Positions 1 through 44,705 of a DNA stretch of 55,456 bases are shown here, in pieces. The first letter of the stretch is position 1, and each line of letters begins with the position of its first letter. The stretch comes from Firmicutes bacterium UBA4981 (GTDB lineage: Bacteria > Bacillota > SHA-98 > UBA4971). The position numbers and the translations under genes are program-made. Location of the stretch: the NCBI GenBank assembly GCA_002398515.1, contig DGZL01000166.1, positions 12,885 through 68,340 on the forward strand, written 5' to 3'. The notes under the pieces were generated by a model, which did not search any database, was not told the DNA's origin, and was given only the letters and a program-made list of their open reading frames with translations.

Positions 1-870
1 TATGATGGCAAGATCTACGGCCTGCCGTTTGATGCCTGTCTTCTATTACTGGCCTACAGGGAAGATGTCTATGAAGAGCTGGGGCTGGAAGTGCCTGAAA
101 CATGGGAGGAATACCTGGAGAATGTTAAGATAATTGATGAGAAGTCAAATGTCCGCGGAGTGTCCTTGATGGGCAAAAGAGGACAACCGGTTTTCTATGA
201 GTTCCTACCGTATTTCTGGGGATTTGGCGGAGAGTTCTTTGATAGCAATATGAAACCGACTCTGAACACACCTGAAGGTGTTAAGGCTCTGGAATACATG
301 GTTGAACTGAGCAAGTATGCCCCTGCAGGAGTGCCGACTTTTGGTTGGGAAGAATCTGCAACTGAGTTCCTTCAGGGTCGTGCCGCCCATGCCTTTATCT
401 TCAGCGACTGGGTTCCCGCTCTGAAAGATCCTGAAAGCTGCACTGTCACTAAGACTTGGAATTTCATGAAGACTCCCAAGGGTCCAAGTGAAGGCTCACC
501 TGTGGGAACGATTAACATCGGAATTAACAAAGACATAACTGAGCAGAAGAAAGAAGCAGCCTATCTCTTGCTGAAATGGATTACCGGATATGAAGTCCAG
601 AAAGAACTGGCTGTAATAGGCGGCGCTCCCAGCCGGTTGTCAGTGTTGAATGACCCTGAGTTTGCCACTGAAGAATACAGATACTTTAAGGCCATCAAAG
701 AAACGTTCCCCATAGAAAAAGTACCCATGAAGATTCCGGAATTCTTTAAACTGAACGAAGCGTTATCCGTCCAATTGTCATCAGCGCTTTCCGGGGAGAA
801 GACCCCCAAGAAGGCGTTAGATGATGCTCAGAAGTCCTGGGAAGAGATAATGAAAGAGGCAGGTTATTAA
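1..870 (+). CDS. ABC transporter extracellular solute-binding protein (family 1 / CUT1 sugar type), 5' end outside the window
   Basis: Frame 1 is open from nt 1 (YDGKIYGLPFDACLLLLAYRE...) and runs into the 91..870 ORF. It is directly followed by MalF/MalG-type permease genes. Confidence 0.8.
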   Translation, partial: YDGKIYGLPFDACLLLLAYREDVYEELGLEVPETWEEYLENVKIIDEKSNVRGVSLMGKRGQPVFYEFLPYFWGFGGEFFDSNMKPTLNTPEGVKALEYMVELSKYAPAGVPTFGWEESATEFLQGRAAHAFIFSDWVPALKDPESCTVTKTWNFMKTPKGPSEGSPVGTINIGINKDITEQKKEAAYLLLKWITGYEVQKELAVIGGAPSRLSVLNDPEFATEEYRYFKAIKETFPIEKVPMKIPEFFKLNEALSVQLSSALSGEKTPKKALDDAQKSWEEIMKEAGY

Positions 871-900
871 TATACTGAATTTCGGATGTAAATAGGCCAT

Positions 901-937
901 ATTCCTCCTATGTGTGGATTCCACACATAGGAGGAAT
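901..937 (+). repeat. Perfect 17-bp stem / 3-nt loop inverted repeat between the SBP and permease genes
   Basis: ATTCCTCCTATGTGTGG-att-CCACACATAGGAGGAAT read directly. No T-run follows it. Confidence 0.9.
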
Positions 938-966
938 CCTACTTCGTCTACAGGGAGCGATAGGAA

Positions 967-1842
967 TTGAAGCAGAATAATAAGTTCTTTGCCTTAATAT
1001 CATTGCCCGGCATCATATACCTGCTATCCATTGTCTTATTTCCGATTATATTCACAGTTTATCTGAGTTTTCATAAGTACAACTTTATCGAAACCCCGCT
1101 GAGTAACATTCGTTGGATTGGCCTGGGAAATTACATTACGATTTTCAAGGACAGTACTTTTTGGAATTCAACGCTGAATACCGGAATTTATCTGGTGGTC
1201 GGAGTTGTGGTTGAGTTGGTCATCGGTTTAGGTATAGCTCTCCTCATATTCCGACTGTTTAAGAATCAGAATATCGTTACCTCATTAATACTGTTGCCTT
1301 CAATGATGGCGCCGATTGTAATAGGACTTGTCTTCAGATTCATGTTCAATCCCCAATTCGGTGTTTTCGATTTTATATTATCAAAGATGGGTCTTGTAGT
1401 TGCGAACTCCGTCTTGGGAAACAGGTCCACAGCTCTCTTGGGAATAATTTTCGCTGATATTTGGCAATGGACTCCCTTCATAGCCATTATTATTCTTTCC
1501 GGGCTGATTGCCTTACCGCATGAACCTTTTGAGGCAGCCAGGATTGACGGGGCAAACGGTCTTGAAATTTTAACCAACATAACCTTGCCCTTATTAAGAC
1601 CGGTACTGACGGTTGCCATCTTAATAAGAATAGCAGACATAGTTAGAGAATTCGACAAGATATTTGTCATGACATATGGAGGACCGGGCGCAGCATCTGA
1701 GGTACTGAATTTCACGGCTTACAGAATAAACTACATAAACTTCGATATGGGTGTAGGCTCTGCTTATGTAGTTGTCATTTTTGCTATTGTAATACTACTT
1801 AGCGTAGCAGTATTCAAAACCTTCTATGTAAATGAATTCTGA
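967..1842 (+). CDS. ABC sugar transporter permease (MalF/UgpA-like)
   Basis: 291 aa with multiple hydrophobic spans. Conserved EAA-type loop EAARIDGANGLEILTNITLPLLRP. TTG start. Confidence 0.85.
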   Translation: MKQNNKFFALISLPGIIYLLSIVLFPIIFTVYLSFHKYNFIETPLSNIRWIGLGNYITIFKDSTFWNSTLNTGIYLVVGVVVELVIGLGIALLIFRLFKNQNIVTSLILLPSMMAPIVIGLVFRFMFNPQFGVFDFILSKMGLVVANSVLGNRSTALLGIIFADIWQWTPFIAIIILSGLIALPHEPFEAARIDGANGLEILTNITLPLLRPVLTVAILIRIADIVREFDKIFVMTYGGPGAASEVLNFTAYRINYINFDMGVGSAYVVVIFAIVILLSVAVFKTFYVNEF

Positions 1843-1862
1843 GAAATCGGGAGGAGTTTTCT

Positions 1863-2696
1863 ATGGACCATAGACGCAGAAAAGCAATACAGAAATGTCT
1901 TCAGGTGTCTGTTATAGCCATAGTCTTGCTATTGTTTCTGTTCCCTATAATCTGGACCTTTATCACATCGATTAAAGATAACGTTACAGCGTGGAGTATG
2001 CCTCCGAGAATATTCTTTAGCCCCTCAGCAAGCAATTATGTTGAGATCTTTAAGGAGAGAGGTTTGCATCACAACATAAAGAACAGTATTATTGTGGCTT
2101 TGGGCGCTACTGCGATTTCTTTGGTTTTAGGCACTCCGCTGGCATATATGTTTGCCAGGACCAGGTATCGATTCAACAACTTCCTGTTCATCTTCGTGTT
2201 TGCCTCGTATATCCTACCGCCGATTGTTTTAAGTATCCCCTTGTATGTAGCTGCGGCAAGGGTCGGGCTGTTAAACACCTATCTTGTGGTTATCTTGGCC
2301 CATTCTTCGTTCTGTATGGCCTTTACCGTATGGATGCTGAGAGGGTTCTTTGAAGAGATTCCTGTGGAGATTGAAGAATGCGCCAAGGTCGACGGGTGCA
2401 GTAATCTCATGACTTTGTTCAAGGTTACCCTTCCTATAGCCAGACCCGGGCTGGTCGCGACGGTGATATTCTGCATAATCCTGTCATGGAATGATTTCAT
2501 GTATGCTCTGGTTTTGACCGGTATGGATACTAGGACTCTTCCTGTGGCTGTAGGCCAATTCCTTACACCCCACGGAATGTTTTGGGGGCAAATGTGCGCT
2601 GCAGGCATTGTAGCCACAGCGCCGGTCTTGGTATTTTCTTTATTCTTCCAAAGGTATTTGATCAGGGGTATGACAGCCGGGGCCGTCAAGGGTTGA
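1863..2696 (+). CDS. ABC sugar transporter permease (MalG/UgpE-like)
   Basis: 277 aa, hydrophobic. EAA loop ECAKVDGCSNLMTLFKVTLPIARPG. Confidence 0.85.
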   Translation: MDHRRRKAIQKCLQVSVIAIVLLLFLFPIIWTFITSIKDNVTAWSMPPRIFFSPSASNYVEIFKERGLHHNIKNSIIVALGATAISLVLGTPLAYMFARTRYRFNNFLFIFVFASYILPPIVLSIPLYVAAARVGLLNTYLVVILAHSSFCMAFTVWMLRGFFEEIPVEIEECAKVDGCSNLMTLFKVTLPIARPGLVATVIFCIILSWNDFMYALVLTGMDTRTLPVAVGQFLTPHGMFWGQMCAAGIVATAPVLVFSLFFQRYLIRGMTAGAVKG

Positions 2697-2713
2697 CCTA
2701 AGGAGGGACGAAA

Positions 2714-4240
2714 TTGGGAAAAGGGAAAATACTGATCTACGATTTTGGAACTACCGCAGTCAAGACTGTCCTATTTGATGAGAACATCCAAATACTTGAT
2801 GTAATTACGACAGAGTTAAGTTACGATTACCCTGAAGACAGGTATGTGGAATTTGACGCTGAGACTTATTGGGAGATAGCTGTTAATACAGCTAAAGAGA
2901 TCATCACCCAAAATCAATGTCAGGATTCACTGGAAATCATATCCATAGCCAGTCAGGCTGAGACTGTAATCCCTGTTGACAGCAAAGGGAATTGCTTGAG
3001 AAAAGCCATGGTCTGGTTGGATACCAGGGCTGTTAAGGAAAATGACGATCTGAAAAACAGTATCGACGTCCATTCATTTTATCATATAACCGGATTAAAT
3101 GATATGGACCCGATTTGGCCGATAAACAAGATAAAGTGGCTTAAAAACAATGAGCCGCAACTCTATTCTGATACCGCCAAGTTCTTACTCTTAAAAGACT
3201 ATGTTCTTTTCAAACTCACCGGCGAATTTGTGACCGATCCTTCTATCTGTTCTTTTTCAGGCTACTTTGATATCGGTAAGAAGGAGTGGTCACAGAGATT
3301 ACTTGACATTGCAGAACTGGACGCAAATAAACTGCCTCGACTTGAAGAGTCAGAGGAGATTATCGGAACACTGAGACCGGAAGTCCAAAAGATGTTCGGT
3401 CTCGAACGGCCGATTCAAGTAATGAATGGAATGCTGGATCAAAGTGGTTCTGCAATCGGCGCCGGAAATATCGAAGAAGGTTACCTGACCGAGACGACAG
3501 GTACGGTTCTGGCTTTGGCCAGCACAATTCGGAATCTGGATTCATTGGATTTACATGACAGAGTTCCCATAGTGTGTCATGGAGTAGCCGATAAGTATTT
3601 GGCTCTGACTTTTTGTCAGACTGCCGGTATACTCCTGAAATGGTTTAGAGATAACTTCTGCGAAATAGAAATCCAGGAAGCAGCCAGAAGCAATAAAGAT
3701 GTCTATGACATCTTGACTGAGAAAGCAAGACCGGATTCGATAAACAAAAGACTGATAATCCTGCCTCACTTTGGCGGCGCCACAAGCCCGGTTGTTAATC
3801 CGGACGCTTCAGGGGTTATCTTCGGATTGAATCTGGACACCAATAAAGGCGACATAGTCAAGGGTATTATGGAAAGTGTGGCTTTCTTGCTTAAGGAAAA
3901 CTATACTTTTCTGCTGAACAATGGATTTCACATTGATAAGGTGAGATCCCTCGGCGGGGGCGCCAAGAGTCCTTTTTGGCTGCAAATAAAGAGCGATGTT
4001 TTGAACAGGGAGTTTGAGACAATAGAGAGTGAAGAATCGACTTCCCGGGGCTGCGCATTTTTGGCAGGAAAACAGTTGGGGCTTTATGACGACCTTGGTG
4101 AGATCTGTCGAAAGATCAAGACCAAAGATTGTTACAGACCTGATCCTCGGAAAGTTGAGACATATGAACAGAAGTATCGTTTATATCTGGATCTATATAG
4201 TTCCCTGGGTGAGGTATTTGAGAAATCCAGTCGCTATTAG
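2714..4240 (+). CDS. FGGY-family carbohydrate kinase (xylulokinase/ketose kinase-like)
   Basis: 508 aa. N-terminal YDFGTTAVKTVLFD phosphate-1 motif. C-terminal GGGAKSPFWLQIKSDVLNREF ... SRGCAFLAG, typical of FGGY kinases. Confidence 0.85.
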   Translation: MGKGKILIYDFGTTAVKTVLFDENIQILDVITTELSYDYPEDRYVEFDAETYWEIAVNTAKEIITQNQCQDSLEIISIASQAETVIPVDSKGNCLRKAMVWLDTRAVKENDDLKNSIDVHSFYHITGLNDMDPIWPINKIKWLKNNEPQLYSDTAKFLLLKDYVLFKLTGEFVTDPSICSFSGYFDIGKKEWSQRLLDIAELDANKLPRLEESEEIIGTLRPEVQKMFGLERPIQVMNGMLDQSGSAIGAGNIEEGYLTETTGTVLALASTIRNLDSLDLHDRVPIVCHGVADKYLALTFCQTAGILLKWFRDNFCEIEIQEAARSNKDVYDILTEKARPDSINKRLIILPHFGGATSPVVNPDASGVIFGLNLDTNKGDIVKGIMESVAFLLKENYTFLLNNGFHIDKVRSLGGGAKSPFWLQIKSDVLNREFETIESEESTSRGCAFLAGKQLGLYDDLGEICRKIKTKDCYRPDPRKVETYEQKYRLYLDLYSSLGEVFEKSSRY

Positions 4241-4271
4241 GATATACATTTAGAGGAAGAGGTGTAGACGA

Positions 4272-5291
4272 ATGAAGGCAGTTGTTTTCGAGGCACCAAA
4301 TGCGCTCAAAATAAAAGAGGTGAAAACACCCAGAGCCGGAGATAATGAGGTTGTTGTCAAGGTAGAAGCAAGCGGTGTTTGTGCTTCAGATATTCATATC
4401 CTAAAAGGAGACTTCATAGGCAGTGATCCGTACCCTTTGATTCCAGGCCATGAGTTCACCGGGACAATTGTTGAAAAGGGCAAGAACGTCAAGAATTTCG
4501 ATGTGAATGACCCGGTTGCCATAGACCCGGTAATACCGTGTGGTAAGTGTTACTACTGCAAGAGGAATGAGCAAAACCACTGTATCAACTTTAATGGGCT
4601 GGGGGATACCATTGCAGGCGGATTCGCCGAGTATGTGCTTGTCCCGGAAGCGAATCTATTCCACTTTGAGAACGTGTCTTTTGAGGAAGCTTCTCTGGCT
4701 GAGCCATTGGCTTGCGTGCTTTATGGTCATAAGCGGGCGCCTGTCCATTTAGGTGATGATGTCCTGATATTTGGGGCAGGGTCTCTTGGACTGTTACACT
4801 TGCAGGTAGCCAGACACAGCGGAGCTGCGAATATTACTGTCTGTGATCTGAAGAAGGACAAATTGGCACTGGCCGGAGAGCTTGGAGCAGACTATGTCAT
4901 AAATCCCCGTGAAGAGGAAGAAGACTCCGCACTAAAATATTCGCCTCAGGGATATGATGTGGTTATTGATGCAACCGGATCGCCGAGAGTTGTTGAGAAT
5001 GCAGTTAAGTTCGTCAAGAACAAGGGCACGTTGATGGTTTTCGGTGTTTGTCCTCAAGATGCTACGATTACCATATCTCCTTATGAGATCTATCGTAGGG
5101 ACATAAACATCGTAGGTGTCTTTGCTCTGAACCGCACCTTCGGAGAGTCAATTAAGTTGATTGATAAGGGAGTAATCAATACTAAGAGGGTAATATCAGA
5201 TATCTTCCCTCTTGAGAAACTGCCTTTAGCTCTTGAGATGATTGAAAACGGAGAGGCCGGAGGAAAGATCGTAATAAAACCCCATCTATAG
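4272..5291 (+). CDS. Zn-dependent medium-chain dehydrogenase (sorbitol / polyol / threonine dehydrogenase-like)
   Basis: 339 aa. Catalytic GHEFTGTIVEKG, structural-zinc cysteine cluster CGKCYYCKRNEQNHC, Rossmann motif GAGSLG. Confidence 0.85.
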   Translation: MKAVVFEAPNALKIKEVKTPRAGDNEVVVKVEASGVCASDIHILKGDFIGSDPYPLIPGHEFTGTIVEKGKNVKNFDVNDPVAIDPVIPCGKCYYCKRNEQNHCINFNGLGDTIAGGFAEYVLVPEANLFHFENVSFEEASLAEPLACVLYGHKRAPVHLGDDVLIFGAGSLGLLHLQVARHSGAANITVCDLKKDKLALAGELGADYVINPREEEEDSALKYSPQGYDVVIDATGSPRVVENAVKFVKNKGTLMVFGVCPQDATITISPYEIYRRDINIVGVFALNRTFGESIKLIDKGVINTKRVISDIFPLEKLPLALEMIENGEAGGKIVIKPHL

Positions 5292-5301
5292 ACAAGATAG
5301 T

Positions 5302-6021
5302 TTGACGAGGAGGATTCTTGCCTTGTACAAAGGTTTTGAAGTCAAACCGCCGTTTTTTGAAATTGGGCCGAAGGCTTATCTGTACGGTGAGGAATTGCTG
5401 AAGCTGGCAAAGGTTGCGGATAGAGCTGCCCAAGAGTATGACGTAAGAATAATCATGACTCCCCAATACACTGACATAAGTATGTTGGCAAGAGAAACCG
5501 AGAATCTGCTTGTCTTTGCCCAGCATATGGACGCTCTTCCAATAGGCAAAGGCCTTGGGTCCGTTCTTCCTGAGGCGGTTAAGGCTGCCGGTGCAGTAGG
5601 GGTAATGCTCAATCATGCGGAAAAGCCGATGACTGTTTCAGAACTTTATAAAGCAATCAGGCGGGCTGATGAGGTAGGACTGGTTTCAATTGTTTGTGCT
5701 GATTCCATTGCCGAAGCTGCGGCCATTGCTCATTTTGCACCGAATATCATAGTAGCTGAGCCTACGGAACTCATCGGTACAGGGCAAACAAGTGATGAGG
5801 AATATGTGCTCATGACTACGGCTGCGATAAAGGCTGTAAATCCGGAAGTACAGGTGTTGCAAGGGGCAGGAATCAGCTCCGGTGAAGATGTTTACAGGGT
5901 GATTAAAGCAGGCGCTGAAGGAACAGGATCTACAAGCGGTATCATTAAAGCCGACGATCCTGAGGCAATGATTTGCGAGATGATAAGTGCTGTACGCGCT
6001 GCATGGGATGAATGCCATTGA
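5302..6021 (+). CDS. Short triosephosphate-isomerase-family protein (TIM paralogue, probably a sugar-phosphate isomerase)
   Basis: MLNHAEKP (NHSE-type motif) and AEPTELIGTG (catalytic Glu plus IGTG) match TIM signatures. The size is that of the short archaeal-type TIMs. The real start may be TTG 5323, 9 nt after AGGAGG. Confidence 0.7.
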   Translation: MTRRILALYKGFEVKPPFFEIGPKAYLYGEELLKLAKVADRAAQEYDVRIIMTPQYTDISMLARETENLLVFAQHMDALPIGKGLGSVLPEAVKAAGAVGVMLNHAEKPMTVSELYKAIRRADEVGLVSIVCADSIAEAAAIAHFAPNIIVAEPTELIGTGQTSDEEYVLMTTAAIKAVNPEVQVLQGAGISSGEDVYRVIKAGAEGTGSTSGIIKADDPEAMICEMISAVRAAWDECH

Positions 6022-6084
6022 CAGTTCCACAGGTTTCTATACTCTAAAGAACTCTATTTTGACTGGGACAAGGAGGAAAACAAC

Positions 6085-6585
6085 GTGGCAGTTTATCGAG
6101 ACATAATTAACCTACAGTCAGAAATCTTGAATCCGACTTTTCATGATGTTACAGATGAGGTAAAGAAAATCGTCAAAGAGTCCGGTATAAAGAATGGTAT
6201 TTGCGTTGTCTATTCGCATCACACTACGTGTAGTGTGATGACTCAAGAGAATTCACACGATACCAATCATTGGGGGCTGGAATTCCTCCAACAAGATCTA
6301 TGCAATATTATGGAGAAACTCATTCCGACATGTAGAACGGAAGGTCAATATATGCATCCCGGGCCAAAGCATATTGAATTTGCTGAGAAAACCGTTTGCG
6401 AGGATGGTAAGTATAGCCTCAATACTGACGCTCATCTTCGCTCAGTGTTTTTTGGCCGTTCAGAGACTATTATCATTGCTGACGGCGAGCTACAGCTTGG
6501 CCAATTTGGGTATATATACTTTGTTGACTGGGATCAAGTTCGTGCCCGCAAGAGGGTCTGCCAGGTTCAAATCATAGGTGAGTAA
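6085..6585 (+). CDS. YjbQ / UPF0047 family protein (secondary thiamine-phosphate synthase family)
   Basis: 166 aa. SHHTTCSV and NTDAHLRSVFFGRSETIIIADGELQLGQFGYIYFVDWD match the UPF0047 signature. GTG start after an AGGAGG-like site. Confidence 0.75.
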   Translation: MAVYRDIINLQSEILNPTFHDVTDEVKKIVKESGIKNGICVVYSHHTTCSVMTQENSHDTNHWGLEFLQQDLCNIMEKLIPTCRTEGQYMHPGPKHIEFAEKTVCEDGKYSLNTDAHLRSVFFGRSETIIIADGELQLGQFGYIYFVDWDQVRARKRVCQVQIIGE

Positions 6586-6644
6586 CCCTCGAGTCATTTC
6601 ATAGCATGTAGGTTTGCCATTCGATAATGTGGGAGGACTTGATA

Positions 6645-7244
6645 ATGACAGAGCAGGCGTTGGAGTTGGCGATAGCTTCCATAGAGATCGAAAGCAAGGC
6701 CGTATCCGATATCCTGGGATATCTGGATAAAGAGCAATTCATGAGAGCAGTGGAAGCAATAAGCAAGTGTTCTAAGGTCATAACTTGTGGTAGCGGGTCT
6801 TCAGGCATTGCTGCAAAGAAGTTTGCTCACTCTCTCTGCTGTGTTGAAAAGAGCGCCCATTTTCTTTCCCCGGCTGAAGCGGTGCATGGAGGACTTGGTT
6901 GTGTAAAGAAAGATGATGTAGTTATATTCGTATCACGCGGAGGCAGAACTGTTGAATTACTGCCCATAATTGACGTATGTGAAAGAAAAGGCGCCACTAT
7001 TATCGCAATCACAGAGAACCTGGATTCGCCGCTGGCAAGAACCGCTGATATTATCGTTCAACTTAAGATTGAAAAGGAGAGCGACAAGTTCAACGTAATG
7101 GCTACCTCAAGTTTCATTGCAACAATTGCAATGTTTGATGCCATCTTGGTAGCGATTATGGAGGTAACAGATTATCAGTTGGATCAATTTGCACCAATTC
7201 ACCCGGGGGGCGCCGTCGGAGCAAGGCTTAATCCTATTAAGTGA
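6645..7244 (+). CDS. SIS-domain sugar-phosphate isomerase/binding protein (KpsF/GutQ/PHI-like)
   Basis: CGSGSSGIAAKKFAHSL and VVIFVSRGGRT..IIAIT are SIS motifs. ATG 6645 lies 7 nt after GGGAGGA. The ORF-track start 6627 overlaps that RBS. Confidence 0.75.
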   Translation: MTEQALELAIASIEIESKAVSDILGYLDKEQFMRAVEAISKCSKVITCGSGSSGIAAKKFAHSLCCVEKSAHFLSPAEAVHGGLGCVKKDDVVIFVSRGGRTVELLPIIDVCERKGATIIAITENLDSPLARTADIIVQLKIEKESDKFNVMATSSFIATIAMFDAILVAIMEVTDYQLDQFAPIHPGGAVGARLNPIK

Positions 7245-7394
7245 AAAACGTTTAACCTCTTTACTGTTTTCTGTTGGCATAATAGAGGAAACTTGTGATA
7301 CCATGTTGAACATATATATGGTATGCTAAAACCTGCTCCTAACTGCCGAAACAAGAGTTGGAGTGGGTATGTTGTTGTAGGGGAGTCAGAAATC

Positions 7395-8813
7395 ATGCGA
7401 GGATTTCAAGCTATTGTTCTCGCTGCCGGCCTTGGAACAAGAATGCGGTCAAGACTACCGAAAGTTGTCCACGAAATCTGTGGGAAGCCCATGATTACGT
7501 TGGTCCTCGACGCTTTGGAGGCTGCCGGGGCGGAACGCACTCTTGTTGTGGTAGGGCACTTGGCGGAGCTTGTTGAGGAAATTGTGGGCGCGAGGGCGGT
7601 TTGTGTTCTTCAGGCTGAGCAAAAGGGAACCGGCCATGCTGTCATGCAGGCTAAAGACGCGCTTTCCGCATATGAAGGCCGGGTGGTGGTGGCTGCGGGA
7701 GACGCCGCCTACCTGACTGAATCCGACCTGTCATCCCTTGTCAATCACCATCAAAGAACAAAGGCTTCAGCAACTCTGTTATCATCAATTCTGGAAGACC
7801 CATTCGGTTATGGGCGGGTGGTGCGTGAGGCTTCAGGACGGATACGGCGGATTGTCGAAGAGAAAGACTGCTCACCTGAGGAAGCCTTGATATGCGAAGT
7901 CAACAGCTCTGTCTACTGCTTCGAAAAACGCGACTTATTTGACGCCCTTTCCCGTATTACTCCCGATAACGTTCAGGGAGAATACTATCTGACAGATGTG
8001 ATCGAAGTAATGATAAAGGAAGGCCTTCGTGTTGAAGCTATAGTCTCTGAAGACCCCCTGGCCGCACACGGCATCAATACTAGAGTCCAACTGGCAGAGG
8101 CTGAGAGGATCTTCAGGGATAGAATACGAGAGCGCCTTATGCTCTCCGGTGTCACTATGGTGGATCCGGCAACTACGTTTGTGGACTTTGATGTCTCCAT
8201 AGGACAAGATACGAAAATCTTACCGTTTTCAGTAATTCAGGGGAAGACAGTTATCGGTGAAAACTGCACAATCGGGCCTTTTGTACGCATTTTTGACTCA
8301 AAGGTATCTGACGGGGCTTCTATAAGTAATGCTGTTGTCATTGAAGCTGAGGTGGGCAAAGACGTATCTGTAGGCCCTTACGCGTATCTTCGTACAGGGA
8401 CTGTCCTTGCTGAGCGCTCTAAGGTCGGGACTTTTGTTGAGGTGAAAAAGTCAACTGTAGGAAAAGGCAGCAAAGTTCCTCACCAGACATATCTTGGTGA
8501 CGCAACAGTGGGCGAAGGGGTTAACATAGGAGCAGGAACCATAACCTGTAACTATGACGGACATAACAAGTACCCCACGATTATTTCAGACGGAGCATTT
8601 GTGGGCAGTAACACTAACTTTGTGGCACCTGTAGAAATTGGCAGGGGAGCTTATATCGCTGCAGGTTCCACTATCACAGAAGATGTGCCTGAAGGAGCCC
8701 TTGGAATAGCCCGTGGAAAGCAGAAGAACATCCAGGGCTGGGCAGACAAAAGGCATGGGAAGAGCAGAAAATCGGGTTCTGTAGAAGATTCCGGCGGAAC
8801 CTGCGATATATAG
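7395..8813 (+). CDS. glmU: Bifunctional UDP-N-acetylglucosamine pyrophosphorylase / glucosamine-1-phosphate N-acetyltransferase
   Basis: N-terminal AIVLAAGLGTRMRS...PKVVH nucleotidyltransferase motif. C-terminal left-handed beta-helix hexapeptide repeats (VGEGVNIGAGTITCNYDG). Sits in the glmU-prs-ctc-pth order. ATG 7395 is preceded by GGGGAG. Confidence 0.9.
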   Translation: MRGFQAIVLAAGLGTRMRSRLPKVVHEICGKPMITLVLDALEAAGAERTLVVVGHLAELVEEIVGARAVCVLQAEQKGTGHAVMQAKDALSAYEGRVVVAAGDAAYLTESDLSSLVNHHQRTKASATLLSSILEDPFGYGRVVREASGRIRRIVEEKDCSPEEALICEVNSSVYCFEKRDLFDALSRITPDNVQGEYYLTDVIEVMIKEGLRVEAIVSEDPLAAHGINTRVQLAEAERIFRDRIRERLMLSGVTMVDPATTFVDFDVSIGQDTKILPFSVIQGKTVIGENCTIGPFVRIFDSKVSDGASISNAVVIEAEVGKDVSVGPYAYLRTGTVLAERSKVGTFVEVKKSTVGKGSKVPHQTYLGDATVGEGVNIGAGTITCNYDGHNKYPTIISDGAFVGSNTNFVAPVEIGRGAYIAAGSTITEDVPEGALGIARGKQKNIQGWADKRHGKSRKSGSVEDSGGTCDI

Positions 8814-8826
8814 GAGGGCTTGCGCA

Positions 8827-9801
8827 ATGAATGATAGCGGCGGGGTGCACCTAATATTACCGTCCTACAAGAGGCTGAAGTTGTTTACGGGGCTGGCTCA
8901 TCCTGAGCTTGCCTTCGAAATTGCTGCACACCTTGGCATAGGAGTCTCTGCTATGAGGGTGGACAGGTTCAAGGACGGCGAGATACGAGTAGGTATAGAC
9001 GAGACAGTCAGGGGTGTGGATTGCTTCTTAGTACAGCCTACTTGCCCACCGGTGAATGAGAATCTAATGGAGCTACTGATCATTGTCGATGCCATGCGTC
9101 GAGCATCTGCAAAAACGGTAACTGCAGTGATCCCGTACTACGGCTATGCAAGACAGGACAGGAAGGCTAAAGCCAGAGACCCGATTACCGCCAAATTAGT
9201 CGCTAACCTCCTTGTTACGGCAGGATGTGACAGGATACTGACAATAGACCTCCATGCCGGACAGGTCCAAGGTTTCTTCGATATTCCTGTCGACCCTTTG
9301 CTTGGCATGCCTATTCTGGTAAAATACGTTAGGGATTCCGGCCTTTCCAATTGTGTTATCGCATCTCCCGACATAGGGGGAACGGTACGAGCGCGGGCAA
9401 TGGCAGAGAAACTAGGCGTTGGCTTGGTAGTCATTGACAAAAGGCGTCCTGCGCCCAATATTTCAGAAGTGATGAACATTATTGGAGATGCAAAAGGTAA
9501 GACTGTTATACTAGTTGATGATATAATTGATACCGGTGGCACAATTGTCCAAGCAGCTGAGGCTCTGCATAATGCAGGAGCAAAACAGGTATTTGCAGCG
9601 TGTACCCACGCCCTCCTATCCGGGCAGGCAAGGGACAATTTGTCAGCATCGGTTCTTGAGAAGATAATTGTTACGAATACTATACCGCTGAGTGAATCCA
9701 AACGTCCTGAGAGAACTGAAGTCCTGTCAGTAGCACCTCTTTTGGGAGAGGCGATCAAGCGCATTTACCAGGACCTCCCGGTCTCTACGTTATTCGAGTA
9801 G
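8827..9801 (+). CDS. prs: Ribose-phosphate pyrophosphokinase
   Basis: YYGYARQDRK, DLHAGQVQGFFDIPVD and the PRPP-binding loop ILVDDIIDTGGT. Confidence 0.92.
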   Translation: MNDSGGVHLILPSYKRLKLFTGLAHPELAFEIAAHLGIGVSAMRVDRFKDGEIRVGIDETVRGVDCFLVQPTCPPVNENLMELLIIVDAMRRASAKTVTAVIPYYGYARQDRKAKARDPITAKLVANLLVTAGCDRILTIDLHAGQVQGFFDIPVDPLLGMPILVKYVRDSGLSNCVIASPDIGGTVRARAMAEKLGVGLVVIDKRRPAPNISEVMNIIGDAKGKTVILVDDIIDTGGTIVQAAEALHNAGAKQVFAACTHALLSGQARDNLSASVLEKIIVTNTIPLSESKRPERTEVLSVAPLLGEAIKRIYQDLPVSTLFE

Positions 9802-9830
9802 GCGGCACGGTTAGAAGGAGTTGACACGAA

Positions 9831-10508
9831 GTGAGACAGGTGATAATAAGGGGAGAATTGCGGCACCAGACAGGCAAAGGCGCTGCGAGAAGAATGCGGG
9901 CAAGCCGCAGAGTGCCTGCTGTGGTCTATGGGAGAGGCGAAGAGACGACTATTATCTCCCTGGATGAGCGCGAATTCGAGAAAGCAATACAAGCCGGGCT
10001 TGGCGGAGGAACTCTAATCAAACTGGTTCTGTCTAAGGATACGGATACGAAAGACCCGAGCAAGATTGAGAAGACTGCAATTCTCAAGGAAGTACAGTCA
10101 GATGTCGTTCGTGGTAATGTGATCCACGTGGATTTTCAGGCTATATCTTTGGATGAAGCCATTACCACAAAAGTGCCGATAGTGCTCTTAGGTGAAGAGA
10201 ACAGGCCAAGCGACGGAGGCATTATGCAGCACATGATATGGGAGCTGGAAGTGCATGCCCTTCCTATGGATATCCCTGAACGCGTAGAGGTAGACGTTTC
10301 CAAGCTGGAGATCGGCGATTCTATTAAGGTAGGCGACCTTGGGCTCCCAGAGGATGTCCAGGTAAACACTGGGGAAGAAGAAGTAATCATCCTAGTCGCT
10401 GCTCCTGAGTTAGCGGTTGAAGAGGAAGCTGAGGCCGAGGATAGCGAATTGGCGGTTGAAGGGGCAGCTGAGGATCATGTCGCTACCGGAGGACATGCAA
10501 CAGAGTAG
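9831..10508 (+). CDS. ctc: 50S ribosomal protein L25 / general stress protein Ctc
   Basis: N-terminal L25 fold motifs (RHQTGKGAARRMRASRRVPAVVYG), an acidic C-terminal extension, and the conserved position between prs and pth. Confidence 0.85.
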   Translation: MRQVIIRGELRHQTGKGAARRMRASRRVPAVVYGRGEETTIISLDEREFEKAIQAGLGGGTLIKLVLSKDTDTKDPSKIEKTAILKEVQSDVVRGNVIHVDFQAISLDEAITTKVPIVLLGEENRPSDGGIMQHMIWELEVHALPMDIPERVEVDVSKLEIGDSIKVGDLGLPEDVQVNTGEEEVIILVAAPELAVEEEAEAEDSELAVEGAAEDHVATGGHATE

Positions 10509-10527
10509 AAGGGAATCCAATAGAGGC

Positions 10528-11085
10528 GTGAAGCTTGTAGTCGGGTTGGGGAATCCAGGCAGTCAATATGAGGGTTCTCGCCATAATGCCGGGTTTAGAG
10601 TAATGGATATATTATCCGCTCGGCATGGAATCCGTTTTGGAGAGTACAAGTTTTCATCTCTTGTAGGATATGGGAAGATAGCAGGGAACGATGTTGTTCT
10701 TGCCAAGCCTCTGACGTATATGAACCGTAGTGGTCTTGCAGTCAACGCCATGGTGACTTGGTACAACTTACACCCTGGCAACATGCTGGTTATCTTAGAT
10801 GATGTTGCGTTGGAACAAGGCAGACTAAGAATTCGCGCCAAAGGAAGCGACGGCGGACATAACGGGCTGAAATCCATTATCGACGTTGTAAAAACGGAAG
10901 AAATTCCCAGGCTTCGCATAGGTGTTGGAATGCCTAATCCTACTGTAGACATGAGTTGTCATGTGCTTGACTGGTTTGACAAGGAAGAGGTTCCCACTAT
11001 TTCAGAGGCCTTGCTGAGGGCAGCGGATGCTGTATCTGTTTGGTTAGAACACGGTATTGATCGAGTTATGAATGAATTTAACTAG
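10528..11085 (+). CDS. pth: Peptidyl-tRNA hydrolase
   Basis: VKLVVGLGNPGSQYEGSRHNAGF and GSDGGHNGLKSI motifs. An in-frame GTG at 10528 gives the usual length of about 185 aa. The ORF-track start 10417 overlaps ctc. Confidence 0.9.
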   Translation: MKLVVGLGNPGSQYEGSRHNAGFRVMDILSARHGIRFGEYKFSSLVGYGKIAGNDVVLAKPLTYMNRSGLAVNAMVTWYNLHPGNMLVILDDVALEQGRLRIRAKGSDGGHNGLKSIIDVVKTEEIPRLRIGVGMPNPTVDMSCHVLDWFDKEEVPTISEALLRAADAVSVWLEHGIDRVMNEFN

Positions 11086-11207: not shown

Positions 11208-11227
11208 GAAGGGGCCGAAGCCCCTTC
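11208..11227. terminator. GC-rich hairpin between the convergent pth and SASP genes (intrinsic terminator)
   Basis: GAAGGGGC-cgaa-GCCCCTTC followed by TTTGATTTG on the + strand. Confidence 0.6.
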
Positions 11228-39626: not shown

Positions 39627-39643
39627 GGAGACGAATTGCCTCC

Positions 39644-39665
39644 TCAAACAAGTACTCGCAATTGA
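39644..39665. repeat. Left copy of a 22-bp imperfect direct repeat bracketing the AT-rich island
   Basis: TCAAACAAGTACTCGCAATTGA compared with TCAAAAAGGTACTCGAAATTGA at 46119-46140. 19 of 22 positions are identical, including a 13/14 core. Confidence 0.7.
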
Positions 39666-39777
39666 TTTGTTGCCTCATATCAAGAATGTACCTGAAGGAA
39701 GTGAGTGGAAAATACCCAAGACCCAGTATTTGTGATCAACTCTATATCACCCATCTGACACATCTAGTCTAAAGAAA

Positions 39778-39805
39778 CGCCCTTTTGCTTTGAGCGAAAA
39801 GGGCG
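39778..39805 (-). terminator. Intrinsic terminator downstream of the LacI-family gene
   Basis: CGCCCTTTT / AAAAGGGCG stem. On the minus strand it is followed by TTTCTTT. Confidence 0.65.
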
Positions 39806-39824
39806 AACAAGATAGTCTATCTTT

Positions 39825-40802
39825 TCATGTGGTTTCTCTTTCTTGTAGAGTGACAGGGAGAATATTCTCTACAGTGACCTTCTCTTTATTCATCTGCTTA
39901 ATCAATATCTCCATTGCTAACTTACTCATCATTTCAATCGGTTGTCTTATTGTAGTAATTTGAGGAGTAACTAACGATGCAATACTAATATCATCATAAC
40001 CAACAATTCGCACCTCATCCGGTATAGCCTTTTTTAGTTGATAGCAGATTTTGATGGCACTAGCTGCGATTAGATCACTACTAGCAAAAATACCATCTAG
40101 ATTAGGATGTTCACTAAATAAGTCCAATATTAGACGTTCATACTGTTTGGTCTCAAAGACATTAATGTCTGTTTGCACAGTATGAAACTTGATACCCCGC
40201 TCTTGTGCAGTAGCTACAAAGGCTTCGCTACGTTTATTAGCCAAGAGATCTAAGCTAAGATTACCACAGATATGGGCTATTTGCTTACATCCCTTGTCAA
40301 TCAATAGGTTAGTCGCCAGTTTACCTCCTTGGTAGTTATTGGAAGATACATAGGGAATCTTCTCTTTGATCCTCCGATCAAAGGTAACAATAGGTAAATT
40401 GACTTTAGAATACTCATCTACGTCTATGGTGTGACTAGCCATAATAATCCCATCAACCTGGTGCCTCTTAAGCATCTCAATGTATTCTATTTCCTTTTCC
40501 CGCTCAAGTTGAGAATTGCAAAGCAATATTTTATAGCCTTCACTATGAGCGTCCTCTTCAATATAAGCAGATAACTCTCCAAAAAAAGGATGTGAGACAG
40601 TAGGGATAATTAACCCAATCAGATTAGACTTCCCGCGAAATAAGGATCGGGCAAGCTCATTAGGCTGATAATCTAATTCTTTCATGACTCTATATACTTT
40701 TTTTCTAGTAGCTTCACTAATGTATCCACGATTATTAAGAACTCGGGAGACAGTAGTAACTGTGACTCCTGCTTTTTCTGCTACATCTTTGATTGTCGGC
40801 AT
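39825..40802 (-). CDS. LacI-family transcriptional regulator (sucrose/fructan operon repressor-like)
   Basis: N-terminal HTH IKDVAEKAGVTVTTVSRVLNNRGYIS..., plus a periplasmic-binding-protein-like sugar domain. Confidence 0.88.
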   Translation of the reverse strand: MPTIKDVAEKAGVTVTTVSRVLNNRGYISEATRKKVYRVMKELDYQPNELARSLFRGKSNLIGLIIPTVSHPFFGELSAYIEEDAHSEGYKILLCNSQLEREKEIEYIEMLKRHQVDGIIMASHTIDVDEYSKVNLPIVTFDRRIKEKIPYVSSNNYQGGKLATNLLIDKGCKQIAHICGNLSLDLLANKRSEAFVATAQERGIKFHTVQTDINVFETKQYERLILDLFSEHPNLDGIFASSDLIAASAIKICYQLKKAIPDEVRIVGYDDISIASLVTPQITTIRQPIEMMSKLAMEILIKQMNKEKVTVENILPVTLQERETT

Positions 40803-40859
40803 TTATCTCCTCCTGCTGTGCAAAACTCTCCAATCTCATTGACAATATCAGCACATCCA

Positions 40860-42326
40860 TCAATCAGTCACTTGTAGATCCCACTTTTCTAGGCTCTCTA
40901 CAATGCATTCTCCCTTAGCGAATAGTTTTATTCCTATCGCATCTTGCCTGGGGTAAATCCGACCAGTCATTACTTTTTCACCTTCGTTAATGAAGATCTC
41001 AACAGAACTTCTATCCACAAAAATCCTTAGTTTCAACTTACCACTAATTAATGAGATTCCAGTTCTTCTTTCTCCTTGTGGTTCAAGGCCTGACTGATCG
41101 CGATTAAATCTTAATACTTGTTCCGCTGAGTCATACGAAATTACTGTCTCTTCCTTGGTACTGACCCGTACTTTTAAGCCAAATTCCTCCGCTTCCCGTG
41201 CGACAAAAGAAACTTGTAATTCATAACAATCACCTTTGGTCTCTAATACCTTTTCTCCGCAAAACGTAAAGTCACGCAAGGTAAATCGCTCTTGCCTATA
41301 TGTTTCGATTTCTCTCACCGGTTTGAAGTATAACCTTCCTTCTTTTGAAATAATTTCTCTAGGAAGTGTCATCGCCCCTGCCCAGTTATGCCCCAAAGTT
41401 TGCGTGGTTTCTGCTGTACCCCACATATTCATCCATGCAATCAAGATTCTTCTCCCTTGTTTATCCAAGAGTGTTTGAGGAGCATAGAAATCAAAACCAT
41501 GATCTAATGGATAAGATTCAGTAGCATTAAATGTTCCGTTTCCAAAATTCATCTGACCTACAAAGTATAGAGACGAATGAAGATTTTGAAAGTCGTTTCC
41601 CCGCGCCTGCATAAGCTGAGGACAAACCAAGAGATAATCATGGTTTTCCAAGTGGAAAAAATCAGGGCATTCCCAGGTATTGCCCATATTACCATCACTT
41701 CTTGCCGCAACACTCACGAATTGCCAATTTAATAAATCCTTTGTTTTATACAGCAACACTTGCCCATTTCCTAACCTGTCTTCTGACCCGATAAAAGCGT
41801 AGTAATATTCGTCAAGCTGTATTAGTCTGGGGTCGCGAAAATCTCGTTTATTGGCTTCATCTGGTATTAGATCGACCCCAATGACTGGATTGCTCTTAAT
41901 CTTCTTAAAAACCCTGCCATCCTCAGAATAAGCCAGACATTGAGTTTGGCGATAATCGTTTTTTTTGTTAGGACCAGTAAGAGCAAAACCTGTATACATA
42001 AGATATAATTTGTTTCTTATCTCCAAAGCACTACCAGAAAAACACCCGTCCTGATCATACGGACAGTCTGGCGCCAAGGCAATTGGCAAATAGCGCCACT
42101 TAACCAAATCTTTACTCACAGCATGCCCCCAATGCATCCTTCCCCATACTGGTTCATAGGGGTTATGCTGATGAAACAGATGATACTCCCCACCAAACTG
42201 AGTAAATCCATTGGGGTCATTAATCCAACCGTACTCGCCCATAAAATGATAGTTTAATCGATATTCAGGATTAACCTTTTCTTTGTTTTCCAGAACGAAC
42301 CTATTCGCTTTATCGATTTGCTCCAT
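40860..42326 (-). CDS. Glycoside hydrolase family 32 (sucrose-6-phosphate hydrolase / beta-fructofuranosidase)
   Basis: GWINDPNGF, FRDPRL and WECPDFF catalytic motifs. No signal peptide. Confidence 0.9.
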   Translation of the reverse strand: MEQIDKANRFVLENKEKVNPEYRLNYHFMGEYGWINDPNGFTQFGGEYHLFHQHNPYEPVWGRMHWGHAVSKDLVKWRYLPIALAPDCPYDQDGCFSGSALEIRNKLYLMYTGFALTGPNKKNDYRQTQCLAYSEDGRVFKKIKSNPVIGVDLIPDEANKRDFRDPRLIQLDEYYYAFIGSEDRLGNGQVLLYKTKDLLNWQFVSVAARSDGNMGNTWECPDFFHLENHDYLLVCPQLMQARGNDFQNLHSSLYFVGQMNFGNGTFNATESYPLDHGFDFYAPQTLLDKQGRRILIAWMNMWGTAETTQTLGHNWAGAMTLPREIISKEGRLYFKPVREIETYRQERFTLRDFTFCGEKVLETKGDCYELQVSFVAREAEEFGLKVRVSTKEETVISYDSAEQVLRFNRDQSGLEPQGERRTGISLISGKLKLRIFVDRSSVEIFINEGEKVMTGRIYPRQDAIGIKLFAKGECIVESLEKWDLQVTD

Positions 42327-42798
42327 TATTTAAGACACCCACATTCGTGTTGCAATAAACAAATCACTGTTTGTTGCAAATACTCATTCATCGTTTTCGC
42401 AGAATCCTTTTGCAGCATCCCGCAGGGAATTTGCGTATGAGTTTTCATGAGTAAATTCTTGATCCCATAACTCGGGCCGTCGAAGAGCAGAAGGTAGCTG
42501 TGATGGACCAGATGGTCAATCATGGCGGCAGTCATCTACTCATCGTGGAAAATGTTTACCCATTTGCTGAACTCCAATTCATGCTCTCTTGCTCGTAATT
42601 ACCGTAAAGTCTCAAATGCCGTCTGATCTCGCGACAGTTTTCATCGAGGACGGTGACCTCATGCGCTGTCAATCTCGCAAACAGTTGACTATTGGTGCAA
42701 CGAGGCGTTGCTTTGAGTAATGAGGCCTTAACATGTCCTGATCGCACTGCTCCAAGAGATGCAAGTTTGCGATTTCCGGTAATCCCCCAATTCTGCAA
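42326..42798 (-). mobile_element. Degenerate IS21-family remnant (IstB C-terminal fragment with an in-frame TAG, plus an upstream fragment possibly IstA-derived)
   Basis: The minus strand reads ELEFSKWVNIFHDE*MTAAMIDHLVHHSYLLLFDGPSYGIKN, which matches the conserved C-terminus of IstB helper ATPases. The preceding frame (RLTAHEVTVLDENCREIRRHLRLYG) resembles an IstA C-terminal stretch. No Walker motifs or DDE region remain. Confidence 0.6.
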
Positions 42799-42841
42799 TC
42801 CCCGGCAGTTTTACATTACGACAAACACAAATCACTTGAAA

Positions 42842-43693
42842 TCACTTGATAGCTCCCTGCATTATTCCGCTTATTATATGCTTTTGCATCAAAATGAAGA
42901 AAACAATCACAGGGATAATAGTTAATAACAAACCAGCCATTAATAAGCCATAATCTGCAGTGTAAGTGCCATGAAAATAAAAAGTTGATAAAGGCAAGGT
43001 TCTATTTGCCTTAGAAATCAGGACCAAAGAAGGGAGAAGAAAATCATTCCAGATCCAAAGTACATTTAGGATTATAAGAGTTAATGTAGTCGGCCTTAAG
43101 AGAGGAAATACTATATTGAAGAAGGTCTGTACCCTTGTGCACCCATCTATCATGGCGGCTTCTTCTAATTCCATTGGAATACTCTTAATAAATCCATGAT
43201 AGACAAAGACGGAAAGGGAAGAACCAAAACCCATATACATATAAATCAAAATCCATTTATTGTCTAGCAACTTCAAATTTGCCCCATAAATTCGTACTAA
43301 CGGAATCATGATTGACTGAAACGGAATGAGCATAGAGGTTACCATCATGAAAAACAAGAACCTATTAATTTTCCATTTAAACCTGACAAAAAAGTAAGCT
43401 GTCATCGAAGAAAATAAGGCAATGATTAATACGCTAATAGAGGTAATAATTAACGAATTAATGAAGGCATCCAAATAATTCATTTGTCTAAATGCATTAA
43501 CAAAGTTGGACACATTCGTTTTACTAATAAATCCTAGAGGATTGGAGATGATTTCTGTTCTGTTTTTGAATGAGTTTATGATCACCAGATAGAAAGGGCA
43601 TAAGTATATAAGTAACAATATGCATAAAAAGCCGTACTTAAAATAGCCAAGAATACTCTTGTCTCTTGCTTTTGCTTTTCCGTATTTCATCAC
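42842..43693 (-). CDS. ABC sugar transporter permease (MalG-like)
   Basis: 283 aa. EAA loop EAAMIDGCTRVQTFFNIVFPLLRP. Confidence 0.88.
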   Translation of the reverse strand: MMKYGKAKARDKSILGYFKYGFLCILLLIYLCPFYLVIINSFKNRTEIISNPLGFISKTNVSNFVNAFRQMNYLDAFINSLIITSISVLIIALFSSMTAYFFVRFKWKINRFLFFMMVTSMLIPFQSIMIPLVRIYGANLKLLDNKWILIYMYMGFGSSLSVFVYHGFIKSIPMELEEAAMIDGCTRVQTFFNIVFPLLRPTTLTLIILNVLWIWNDFLLPSLVLISKANRTLPLSTFYFHGTYTADYGLLMAGLLLTIIPVIVFFILMQKHIISGIMQGAIK

Positions 43694-44574: not shown

Positions 44575-44651
44575 CTCTCTTAACTCCTCATATCATACTT
44601 CCGGCAGACGCTCGTTATCATAAGATTCTATTTGGAATCCAATAATTTATC

Positions 44652-44692
44652 AGGCATTAAATAACGGGCATGATGCCCGTTATTTAATGCCT
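44652..44692. repeat. 41-nt perfect palindrome (20-nt arms, 1 central nt) between the SBP and permease genes
   Basis: AGGCATTAAATAACGGGCAT-g-ATGCCCGTTATTTAATGCCT. Confidence 0.9.
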
Positions 44693-44705
44693 TTAGTCTA
44701 AAGTT

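Follow-up and report, generated by a model that had tools for sequence, protein, structure and literature searches.

The 55,456-nucleotide window studied here, a stretch of contig DGZL01000166.1 of Firmicutes bacterium UBA4981, begins with an eight-gene cluster (positions 1–7244) in which predicted genes for the uptake, oxidation and phosphorylation of a sugar alcohol (polyol) are followed by those of a triose-phosphate isomerase (TIM) family paralogue, hereafter the TIM-like protein, of a YjbQ/UPF0047 protein and of a single-domain SIS protein. We found that the TIM-like and YjbQ genes are a fixed gene pair and that the TIM-like proteins of this pair lack side chains which TIM has at the non-phosphate end of its substrate. 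The reading in which we place about even confidence is that a ketose phosphate larger than a triose undergoes a carbonyl shift by the TIM-like protein and is then isomerised by YjbQ and SIS into the pentose-phosphate pathway.

YjbQ/UPF0047 is a classic conserved protein family without an assigned function, for which a weak side activity alone is on record. That it is almost always paired with a remodelled TIM in sugar operons, and this in many phyla, leads to a concrete hypothesis that is open to standard assays. The polyol front end of the cluster, the occurrence of the cluster in a second species, the parallel loss of an Asn residue in the erythritol enzyme EryH, the link to pdxB suppression in E. 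coli and the recurrent E1/E2/E3 and VOC neighbours are new in this study. The genes at positions 1–7244 were assigned by Pfam and NCBIfam models, the scores of which were read against curated cut-offs.

Recurrence of the TIM-like/YjbQ pair

Loci were collected with either the TIM-like protein or YjbQ as the seed. In the TIM-seeded set, a YjbQ gene was found downstream on the same strand in 72 of the 74 evaluable loci; the two genes are directly adjacent in 37 of them and separated by one gene (SIS) in 35. The YjbQ-seeded loci contain a TIM-like gene upstream in 68 of 73 cases. A SIS gene is present in 54 of 77 YjbQ-seeded loci (~70%) and an FGGY-family kinase gene in 40–75% of the loci, and a gene of the RpiB type was seen in 2 of ~160 TIM-like/YjbQ loci. 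A preliminary description of this DNA, made from the sequence alone, had noted that RpiB is missing from the cluster and had raised the question of whether the YjbQ, SIS and TIM trio recurs. The trio does recur, and RpiB is indeed missing both here and in nearly all of the related loci. The literature searched on YjbQ/UPF0047, tetrulose isomerases and erythritol pathways yielded no characterisation of a TIM-like/YjbQ/SIS module.

The carriers belong to at least eight phyla (Bacillota, Bacteroidota, Chloroflexota, Spirochaetota, Actinomycetota, Planctomycetota, Lentisphaerota/Kiritimatiellia and Alphaproteobacteria) and include plasmids of Enterococcus and Lacticaseibacillus. The module copies of gut, rumen, digester and mat bacteria consist of the same three subfamilies, 55–80% identical, with the genes arranged alike or with SIS at another place, but they differ in the genes that accompany them. 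The copy in the window stands with a CUT1 transporter having a polyol-type solute-binding protein (SBP), a Zn-dependent medium-chain dehydrogenase (Zn-MDR), a short-chain dehydrogenase/reductase (SDR) and a divergent FGGY kinase of its own, and has VOC and E1/E2/E3 neighbours. Meanwhile, the copies in gut and rumen Clostridia are fed by an AraA/SftI-like aldose isomerase, a kinase, a major facilitator superfamily (MFS) transporter and a ceramidase-fold hydrolase, and those in Bacteroidales, Lentisphaerae and Schaalia by a NagA-like protein (219 bits), a NagB-like protein and a ceramidase-fold protein.

The smallest complete context of the pair, found in cultivable bacteria, is an operon on the plasmids of the lactic acid bacteria (LAB) Enterococcus faecium (L092 4042–10199) and Lacticaseibacillus paracasei (L093 3910–10205). 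This compact mobile operon lies between insertion sequence (IS) elements and encodes a PRD regulator, the IIA, IIC and IIB components of a Gat-family phosphotransferase system (PTS), a class II ketose-bisphosphate aldolase, the TIM-like protein and YjbQ; the PTS is the sole feeder of the pair. Such a gene set would suffice if a tetrulose phosphate were converted to erythrose 4-phosphate (E4P) and this were condensed with dihydroxyacetone phosphate (DHAP).

Other partners of the module include FSA/transaldolase-type genes (25 loci), a DhnA-type class I aldolase (11 loci), a class II ketose-bisphosphate aldolase (4 loci) and an Rpe-type epimerase, which occurs in 12 loci and in those of the closest relatives of the TIM-like protein of the window. 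An EryC-like barrel is encoded in 7 module loci, all of them without SIS. In the Shinella locus the pair is found together with an FGGY kinase, an SDR and an EryC-like barrel, and a DAK-type kinase is encoded nearby; regulators of the SorC and DeoR types accompany module copies. The locus of a Sphaerochaetaceae metagenome-assembled genome (MAG; L216 644–12254) contains SIS, TIM-like, YjbQ, VOC and E1/E3/E2 genes beside a PhnS2-like ABC transporter, with the VOC start overlapping the YjbQ stop by 4 nt. As neither a kinase nor a dehydrogenase is among these genes, this bacterium may take up a small substrate that is phosphorylated beforehand or resembles a phosphonate.

Active site of the TIM-like protein

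The TIM-like protein scored 206 bits against PRK04302, the archaeal-type subfamily model with a cut-off of 132, and 103.4 bits against the TIGR00419 equivalog, which is below the cut-off of 130.6. Its best structural matches are archaeal TIMs (1HG3, the P. woesei TIM, 178 bits). The catalytic residues Lys24, His105 and Glu153 are retained and, together with the phosphate loops, they are 99–100% conserved in an alignment of 68 subfamily members. Meanwhile, Gly22 stands in place of the TIM Asn, Gly84-Leu85 in place of the His-Thr of loop 3, and Gly209 in place of the Leu of loop 8, which in TIM clamps the catalytic Glu. These replacements are found in 93–100% of the 68 members.

A canonical tpiA gene scoring 343 bits is present on contig C162 of the same genome. 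The existence of this gene, together with the loss of the Asn, of His-Thr in loop 3 and of Leu in loop 8, shows that the housekeeping TIM is another protein, and a role of the TIM-like protein as a bona fide triose-phosphate isomerase was ruled out. Its earlier description as a TIM paralogue thus holds, the paralogue being a non-glycolytic one. The replacements strip side chains at the non-phosphate end of the substrate; therefore, we infer that the substrate is larger than a triose, with the enediol machinery and the phosphate loops apparently intact and the pocket widened.

The YjbQ and SIS proteins

The YjbQ paralogue of the cluster belongs to its family according to both PF01894 (105.5 bits, cut-off 27) and TIGR00149 (92.6 bits, cut-off 67.75), and its gene has a GTG start preceded by a GGAGG ribosome-binding site. 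YjbQ/UPF0047 proteins occur in all domains of life, and nine structures, bacterial and archaeal among them, have been solved. A separate housekeeping YjbQ is encoded on contig C8 of the same genome; relative to it, the cluster protein carries an insertion of ~30 residues. The subfamily to which the cluster protein belongs is 68–81% identical across phyla and keeps the family motifs HTT.S, Y.H and D.HL. As its linkage with the TIM-like gene holds in ~95% of ~150 loci, we do not regard YjbQ as a passenger.

A hint at the chemistry of the family comes from E. coli, where overexpressed yjbQ bypasses a pdxB deletion as long as serC and the later pdx genes are intact. This bypass was explained by its authors as the formation of 2-oxo-3-hydroxy-4-phosphobutanoate, a C4 phospho-ketoacid (PMC3010111).

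In six loci (L190, L203, L206, L214, L220 and L235), two YjbQ paralogues are encoded in the order TIM-YjbQ-YjbQ-SIS or YjbQ-TIM-YjbQ. This arrangement hints at a hetero-oligomer or at two successive steps catalysed by YjbQ proteins.

The SIS protein has 199–205 aa, depending on its start; the start at 6645 follows GGGAGGA and agrees with the gene call in the contig of a sister MAG (L085). It consists of the SIS domain alone, without CBS domains, and is similar to KpsF/GutQ, although it scored under the cut-offs of both GutQ (140 bits, cut-off 481) and KpsF (137 bits, cut-off 203.7), which places it outside the KpsF/GutQ group. Against HxlB it scored 63 bits. The best PDB matches are 3FXA of Listeria (182 bits), 5UQI (c3406 of E. 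coli CFT073) and the SIS domain of KdsD (2XHZ), all of which share with it the lone SIS domain without CBS. 3FXA is reported to be a glucose-6-phosphate isomerase, and 5UQI and KdsD to be arabinose-5-phosphate isomerases.

Transporter, kinase and dehydrogenases

The SBP gene is severed by the edge of the window, its start being ~640 nt upstream, and the complete protein, as encoded in sister contig L085 at 4247–5569, has 440 aa. Its best solved relatives are 5IAI (190 bits), in which ribitol is bound (PMC8468352), and 4RYA, which is named after sorbitol. These relatives support a polyol as the probable ligand, but no particular one. The SBP_bac_1 protein and the two MalF/MalG-type permeases together make up a CUT1 polyol ABC transporter, the ligand class of which is predicted from the polyol-type nearest structures. 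As the preliminary description stated, the cluster has no gene for the ATPase of this transporter; two ATPases of the TOBE type are encoded elsewhere in the genome. Permeases 1 and 2 are 72% and 76% identical, respectively, to their counterparts in L341, a metagenome contig of a second species.

The hairpin between the SBP and permease genes has a perfect stem of 16–17 bp and no U-tract. The fold of positions 871–966 has an energy of −38.3 kcal/mol (z = −5.66 relative to shuffled sequences). The hairpin is probably an mRNA stabiliser that raises the expression of SBP relative to the permeases, or else a partial-termination element.

The FGGY kinase is divergent, xylulokinase-like and under every equivalog cut-off; its best model, XylB (TIGR01312), gave 310 bits against a cut-off of 380.25. 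In the collection of species-representative genomes, no relative with more than 35% identity was found outside the sister MAG. Because the nearest homologue other than that of the sister MAG is ≤35% identical, the genome scan seeded with the kinase gave no clue to the substrate. The kinase copy in L341 is 71% identical.

The ligands of both the catalytic and the structural Zn are present in the Zn-dehydrogenase. Among the structures in the PDB it is closest to 4EJ6 (188 bits), threonine dehydrogenase and sorbitol dehydrogenase, and its homologues at 44–48% identity carry the JGI name D-arabinitol dehydrogenase. The SDR encoded upstream of the SBP gene scored 210 bits against the GolD/DthD model (cut-off 286). 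Its presence beside the Zn-dehydrogenase resembles that of DthD beside EltD in M. smegmatis, and by this analogy a DthD-type role is possible. Thus, the families of the transporter, dehydrogenase and kinase support the earlier view of a polyol-type cluster. Since this front end (SBP, two dehydrogenases and kinase) is readable, the substrate could be identified through a ligand screen of the SBP, which would also give access to the intermediates required for assays of the TIM-like, YjbQ and SIS steps.

Comparison with the erythritol and threitol pathways

The erythritol locus of R. leguminosarum has the gene order eryA, eryB, eryC, eryD, eryR, eryH, rpiB. Its EryH is a TIM of the bacterial type, 42% identical to TpiA of the genome studied here, and contains TSWK instead of GNWK. 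The TIM-like protein could be aligned with EryH only locally (27% identity over 129 aa, E 7e-4), and the two are not orthologous by sequence. As they are related at the level of the family only, a function common to both would be a case of analogous recruitment. Judging from the alignments, the loss of the TIM Asn in EryH (Ser) and in the TIM-like protein (Gly) is convergent.

The cluster resembles the Ery systems of Brucella and Rhizobium, in which EryH is also called TpiA2/TpiB, in having an FGGY kinase and in the gene of a TIM paralogue without the catalytic Asn, directly followed by that of a second phosphosugar isomerase. This order, characteristic of EryH/LerI, was seen as TIM-like then YjbQ here and in ~95% of the related loci. 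The regulators are likewise of the SorC type (EryD) or the DeoR type (EryR), and the module copies elsewhere often occur with transaldolase/aldolase genes; in Brucella, the E4P derived from erythritol enters metabolism through Tal and Fba (PMC11508834). The systems differ in the partner isomerase, which is the RpiB-type EryI there and YjbQ (plus SIS) here. They also differ in the order of reactions: in the Ery systems phosphorylation by the kinase precedes the oxidation, for which EryB uses the phosphate ester, whereas the Zn-MDR/SDR of the cluster are predicted to oxidise the free polyol before its phosphorylation. Moreover, EryH is of the bacterial type, whereas the TIM-like protein is of the archaeal type.

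In the tetritol routes of M. smegmatis, for which PMC10733421 gives the roles of EltD, DthD, LerK, DerK, LerI and DerI, the steps follow the order that we propose here, namely polyol dehydrogenase, kinase, TIM-family isomerase and aldose-ketose isomerase, and the uptake is by an ABC transporter with a polyol-binding SBP. The likeness is one of family and described role. The RpiB-type DerI has no equivalent here, and the VOC, YjbQ, SIS and E1/E2/E3 genes have no counterpart there. The parallel with EltD, LerK and LerI had been drawn in the preliminary description; by analogy, this trio and EryA/EryH/EryI offer the closest known logic for the cluster, and the comparison is strengthened by the loss of Asn in EryH and by the upstream SDR.

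Proposed pathway and its alternatives

According to the gene families, a sugar alcohol would be imported by the CUT1 ABC system with its ATPase supplied in trans, oxidised to a ketose by the Zn-dehydrogenase and/or the SDR and phosphorylated by the FGGY kinase. From the anatomy of its active site and by analogy with EryH and LerI, the TIM-like protein would shift the carbonyl of the ketose phosphate from the carbon next to CH2-O-P to the following one. YjbQ and SIS are then the candidates for the subsequent isomerisation or isomerisations, in which they would together replace the RpiB-type EryI/DerI. The product would be an intermediate of the pentose-phosphate pathway. The host genome encodes a split transketolase, class II aldolase, Rpe and, on contig C32, RpiB; it could absorb E4P via transketolase and the class II aldolase. 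Further arguments for the EryH-EryI and LerI-DerI logic are the scarcity of RpiB in the module loci, the SorC and DeoR regulators, the Shinella locus, the LAB plasmid operon, the frequency of transaldolase and aldolase partners and the bypass of pdxB by yjbQ in E. coli.

Several observations weigh against this route, in part through its tetritol version. No transaldolase was found in the genome, which is 91.7% complete, and the kinase is only 21% identical to EryA of R. leguminosarum. The nearest solved SBP holds ribitol, a C5 polyol. With a tetritol as the substrate, SIS and YjbQ would duplicate each other, and there would be no role for the E1/E2/E3 complex and VOC. About half of the module copies have AraA/SftI-like aldose isomerases, and many others have NagA-like/NagB-like proteins and a ceramidase-fold hydrolase; since free tetroses are rare, such feeders suggest C5/C6 sugars. 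In the closest relatives, an Rpe-type epimerase gene (256 bits, above the cut-off) follows YjbQ, and for Rpe a pentulose or hexulose phosphate is no less fitting than a tetrulose phosphate. Finally, a 2026 preprint states that yjbQ "has no clear function".

A special case of the proposed route, possible in our opinion but rather doubtful, is a strict tetritol pathway from erythritol or threitol through erythrulose, L-erythrulose 1-phosphate and D-erythrulose 4-phosphate to E4P. The FGGY kinase would make L-erythrulose 1-phosphate, the TIM-like protein would act as LerI/EryH, and YjbQ (or SIS) as DerI/EryI. The enzyme families match those of the ery locus and of EltD, LerK, LerI and DerI as these are described in PMC10733421, and the TIM Asn is lost in EryH and in the TIM-like subfamily alike. 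The small LAB plasmid operon is fully accounted for, and the Shinella context fits. The TAL/FBA genes are frequent partners of the module, and Brucella needs Tal/Fba for erythritol (PMC11508834). In addition, YjbQ of E. coli is tied to a C4 phospho-acid (PMC3010111). This scheme has to contend with the ribitol of the closest solved SBP and with the Rpe-type genes that adjoin YjbQ in the closest relatives; in addition, it makes SIS and YjbQ redundant and leaves E1/E2/E3 and VOC unexplained. The copies behind AraA-like or NagA/NagB-like genes would be hard to supply with a tetrulose, and the abstract of a preprint describes gut microbes as being without erythritol catabolic pathways (10.1101/2022.10.03.510612). 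If the tetrulose reading is true, TIM-like/YjbQ(/SIS) would be non-homologous replacements for EryH and EryI. They would then be of interest for the synthetic assimilation of formaldehyde via erythrulose monophosphate, for which better isomerases are called for by the authors of PMC10733421.

The difficulties with the ribitol-type SBP, with the Rpe gene beside YjbQ and with the diversity of feeders would disappear if the substrates were C5/C6 compounds. The kinase would then make a ketose 1-phosphate, and the TIM-like protein, YjbQ and SIS would in turn shift its carbonyl by one carbon each, from position 2 to 3, from 3 to 4 and finally from 4 to 5. This final shift would resemble the reaction of the 3-hexulose-6-phosphate isomerase of the SIS family. 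Stereochemistry would be erased on the way, and pentulose 5-phosphate or fructose 6-phosphate would be formed, with Rpe finishing where needed. This would account for the retention, side by side, of two or three isomerases that differ in fold, and for front ends of one and the same module as diverse as a PTS, NagA/NagB-like genes, AraA-like isomerases and polyol dehydrogenases. An enzyme that interconverts 3-ketoses and 2-ketoses, HxlB, is indeed a member of the SIS family, and SIS of the cluster matches it with the score given above; however, SIS scores higher against arabinose-5-phosphate isomerases. Such a relay has no precedent beyond single steps, the aldolase of the small LAB operon would be left unused and E1/E2/E3 would again not be accounted for, and we consider this walk of the carbonyl unlikely. 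Very improbable, in our judgement, is an ordinary pentitol or hexitol operon in which a central ketose phosphate is reached with the dehydrogenase and kinase alone. The TIM-like protein would then be a spare TIM, SIS would isomerise arabinose 5-phosphate or glucose 6-phosphate, and YjbQ would be present as an unrelated passenger. The XylB-like kinase (310 bits), the ribitol/sorbitol type of the SBP, and the nearness of SIS to 3FXA and arabinose-5-phosphate isomerases would agree with it. However, the TIM-like subfamily systematically lacks the Asn needed for normal TIM catalysis in spite of the normal tpiA in the genome, the TIM-like/YjbQ linkage across many phyla is unlike that of a passenger, and the genome has a separate housekeeping YjbQ.

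A broader scheme, which we put forward as speculative and improbable, would make YjbQ a phosphosugar isomerase acting in a relay with the TIM-like protein and SIS that walks the carbonyl, erases stereochemistry and funnels unusual sugars and polyols to the pentose-phosphate pathway; in some lineages the lipoamide-dependent E1/E2/E3 would cleave a sugar-derived ketol to acyl-CoA.

Two further candidates were rejected. The processing of autoinducer 2 (AI-2; Lsr) was considered with regard to SorC, the FGGY kinase (LsrK, 203 bits) and the DhnA-type aldolases elsewhere, but the scores are far under the cut-offs and there is no LsrG. The sulfoquinovose routes, considered with regard to the AraA/SftI-like isomerases and the aldolase/transaldolase back ends, were dismissed on the SftI scores of 41–59 bits against a cut-off of 700 and the lack of sulfo-specific genes.

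Organisation of the locus

All eight co-directional, tightly spaced genes of the preliminary description were found on the plus strand, with intergenic gaps of 10–96 nt and with the Pfam/NCBIfam families it had named (Table 1). Neither an ABC ATPase gene nor an RpiB gene is present within the cluster.

Table 1. Features at positions 1–7244 of the window
Feature	Position	Strand	Assigned by
CUT1 solute-binding protein (SBP), 3' 289 codons	1..870	+	Pfam SBP_bac_1/SBP_bac_8
Hairpin between SBP and permease genes	901..937	+	RNA fold
ABC permease 1, MalF/UgpA-like	967..1842	+	Pfam BPD_transp_1
ABC permease 2, MalG/GlcU-like	1863..2696	+	Pfam BPD_transp_1
FGGY-family sugar kinase	2714..4240	+	Pfam FGGY_N/FGGY_C
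Zn-dependent medium-chain (Zn-MDR) polyol dehydrogenase	4272..5291	+	Pfam ADH_N/ADH_zinc_N
Archaeal-type TIM-family isomerase paralogue, 239 aa	5302..6021	+	PRK04302
YjbQ/UPF0047 paralogue, 166 aa	6085..6585	+	Pfam UPF0047
Single-domain SIS phosphosugar isomerase	6645..7244, alternative start 6627	+	Pfam SIS

The contig runs on for 12.9 kb upstream of the window, part of it masked with N. Toward the window, the genes there are arranged in the order SorC-family regulator (Pfam Sugar-bind), E2, E3, fused E1 alpha-beta, VOC (a glyoxalase-fold protein), SDR and then SBP, with a gap of 191 nt between E1 and VOC. The second-species contig L341 has the genes VOC, SDR, SBP, two permeases, FGGY, Zn-dehydrogenase, TIM-like, YjbQ, Rpe-like and SIS; those in common with the window cluster, VOC and SDR included, are 69–81% identical each, and the Rpe-like gene may be frameshifted. 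Since VOC and SDR are retained with the cluster in L341, they belong to the unit. Judging from this gene content, the polyol-utilisation locus comprises at least 11 genes, with VOC and SDR, the SBP and both permeases, the FGGY kinase and Zn-dehydrogenase, and the TIM-like, YjbQ and SIS proteins as its members, and positions 1–7244 are its distal half. In L341 a SorC fragment and an E2 gene come after the cluster, on the side opposite to that in this genome. The regulator and the dehydrogenase complex are thus conserved neighbours of the cluster, though moved to the other side in L341. The preliminary interpretation was right about the polyol cluster, the TIM paralogue and the recurrence of the trio, but it missed the upstream VOC, SDR, E1/E2/E3 and SorC genes.

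The upstream E1 alpha-beta, E2 and E3 genes (L004 5209–10573) encode a dehydrogenase complex of the 2-oxoacid/acetoin type. Genes of such a complex neighbour TIM-like/YjbQ in this genome, in L341, L019, L021 (on the same contig as L183), L216 and L182. Meanwhile, none of the 80 closest E1 homologues is encoded beside TIM-like or YjbQ, and the complex as an obligatory part of the module is not supported on this ground. The usual company of these homologues is a 421-aa Zn-dehydrogenase, lipoate ligase, lipoyl synthase, a DeoR regulator, an SDR and a PHP-domain protein, sometimes also an FGGY kinase, and their hosts are anaerobic Clostridia, Spirochaetes and Bacteroidales. This context is conserved and apparently undescribed, and its gene content seems to point to the conversion of sugars or polyols more than to that of acetoin alone.

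A second FGGY kinase gene, for a protein of ~580 aa with its 3' part masked with N, lies at the start of the contig (L004 255–2000). Between its product and the orthologue of the cluster kinase in L341, the identity is ~26%.

The promoter and terminator scans of the locus gave nothing decisive. No terminator was found in the scan between SIS and glmU, the first of the downstream genes glmU-prs-ctc-pth, and the first strong plus-strand terminator is at 11208–11227, after pth.

The contig of the sister MAG is ~94% identical in nucleotides over positions 1–11084 of the window. Compared with it, the window has two extra segments at otherwise collinear positions: a segment of ~24.8 kb (11509–36297) containing a whole flagellar operon, and one of ~7.1 kb (39627–46759) corresponding to an AT-rich sugar island. 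In the sister contig, pth and the small acid-soluble spore protein (SASP) gene are directly joined to the electron transfer flavoprotein (ETF)/acyl-CoA dehydrogenase genes.

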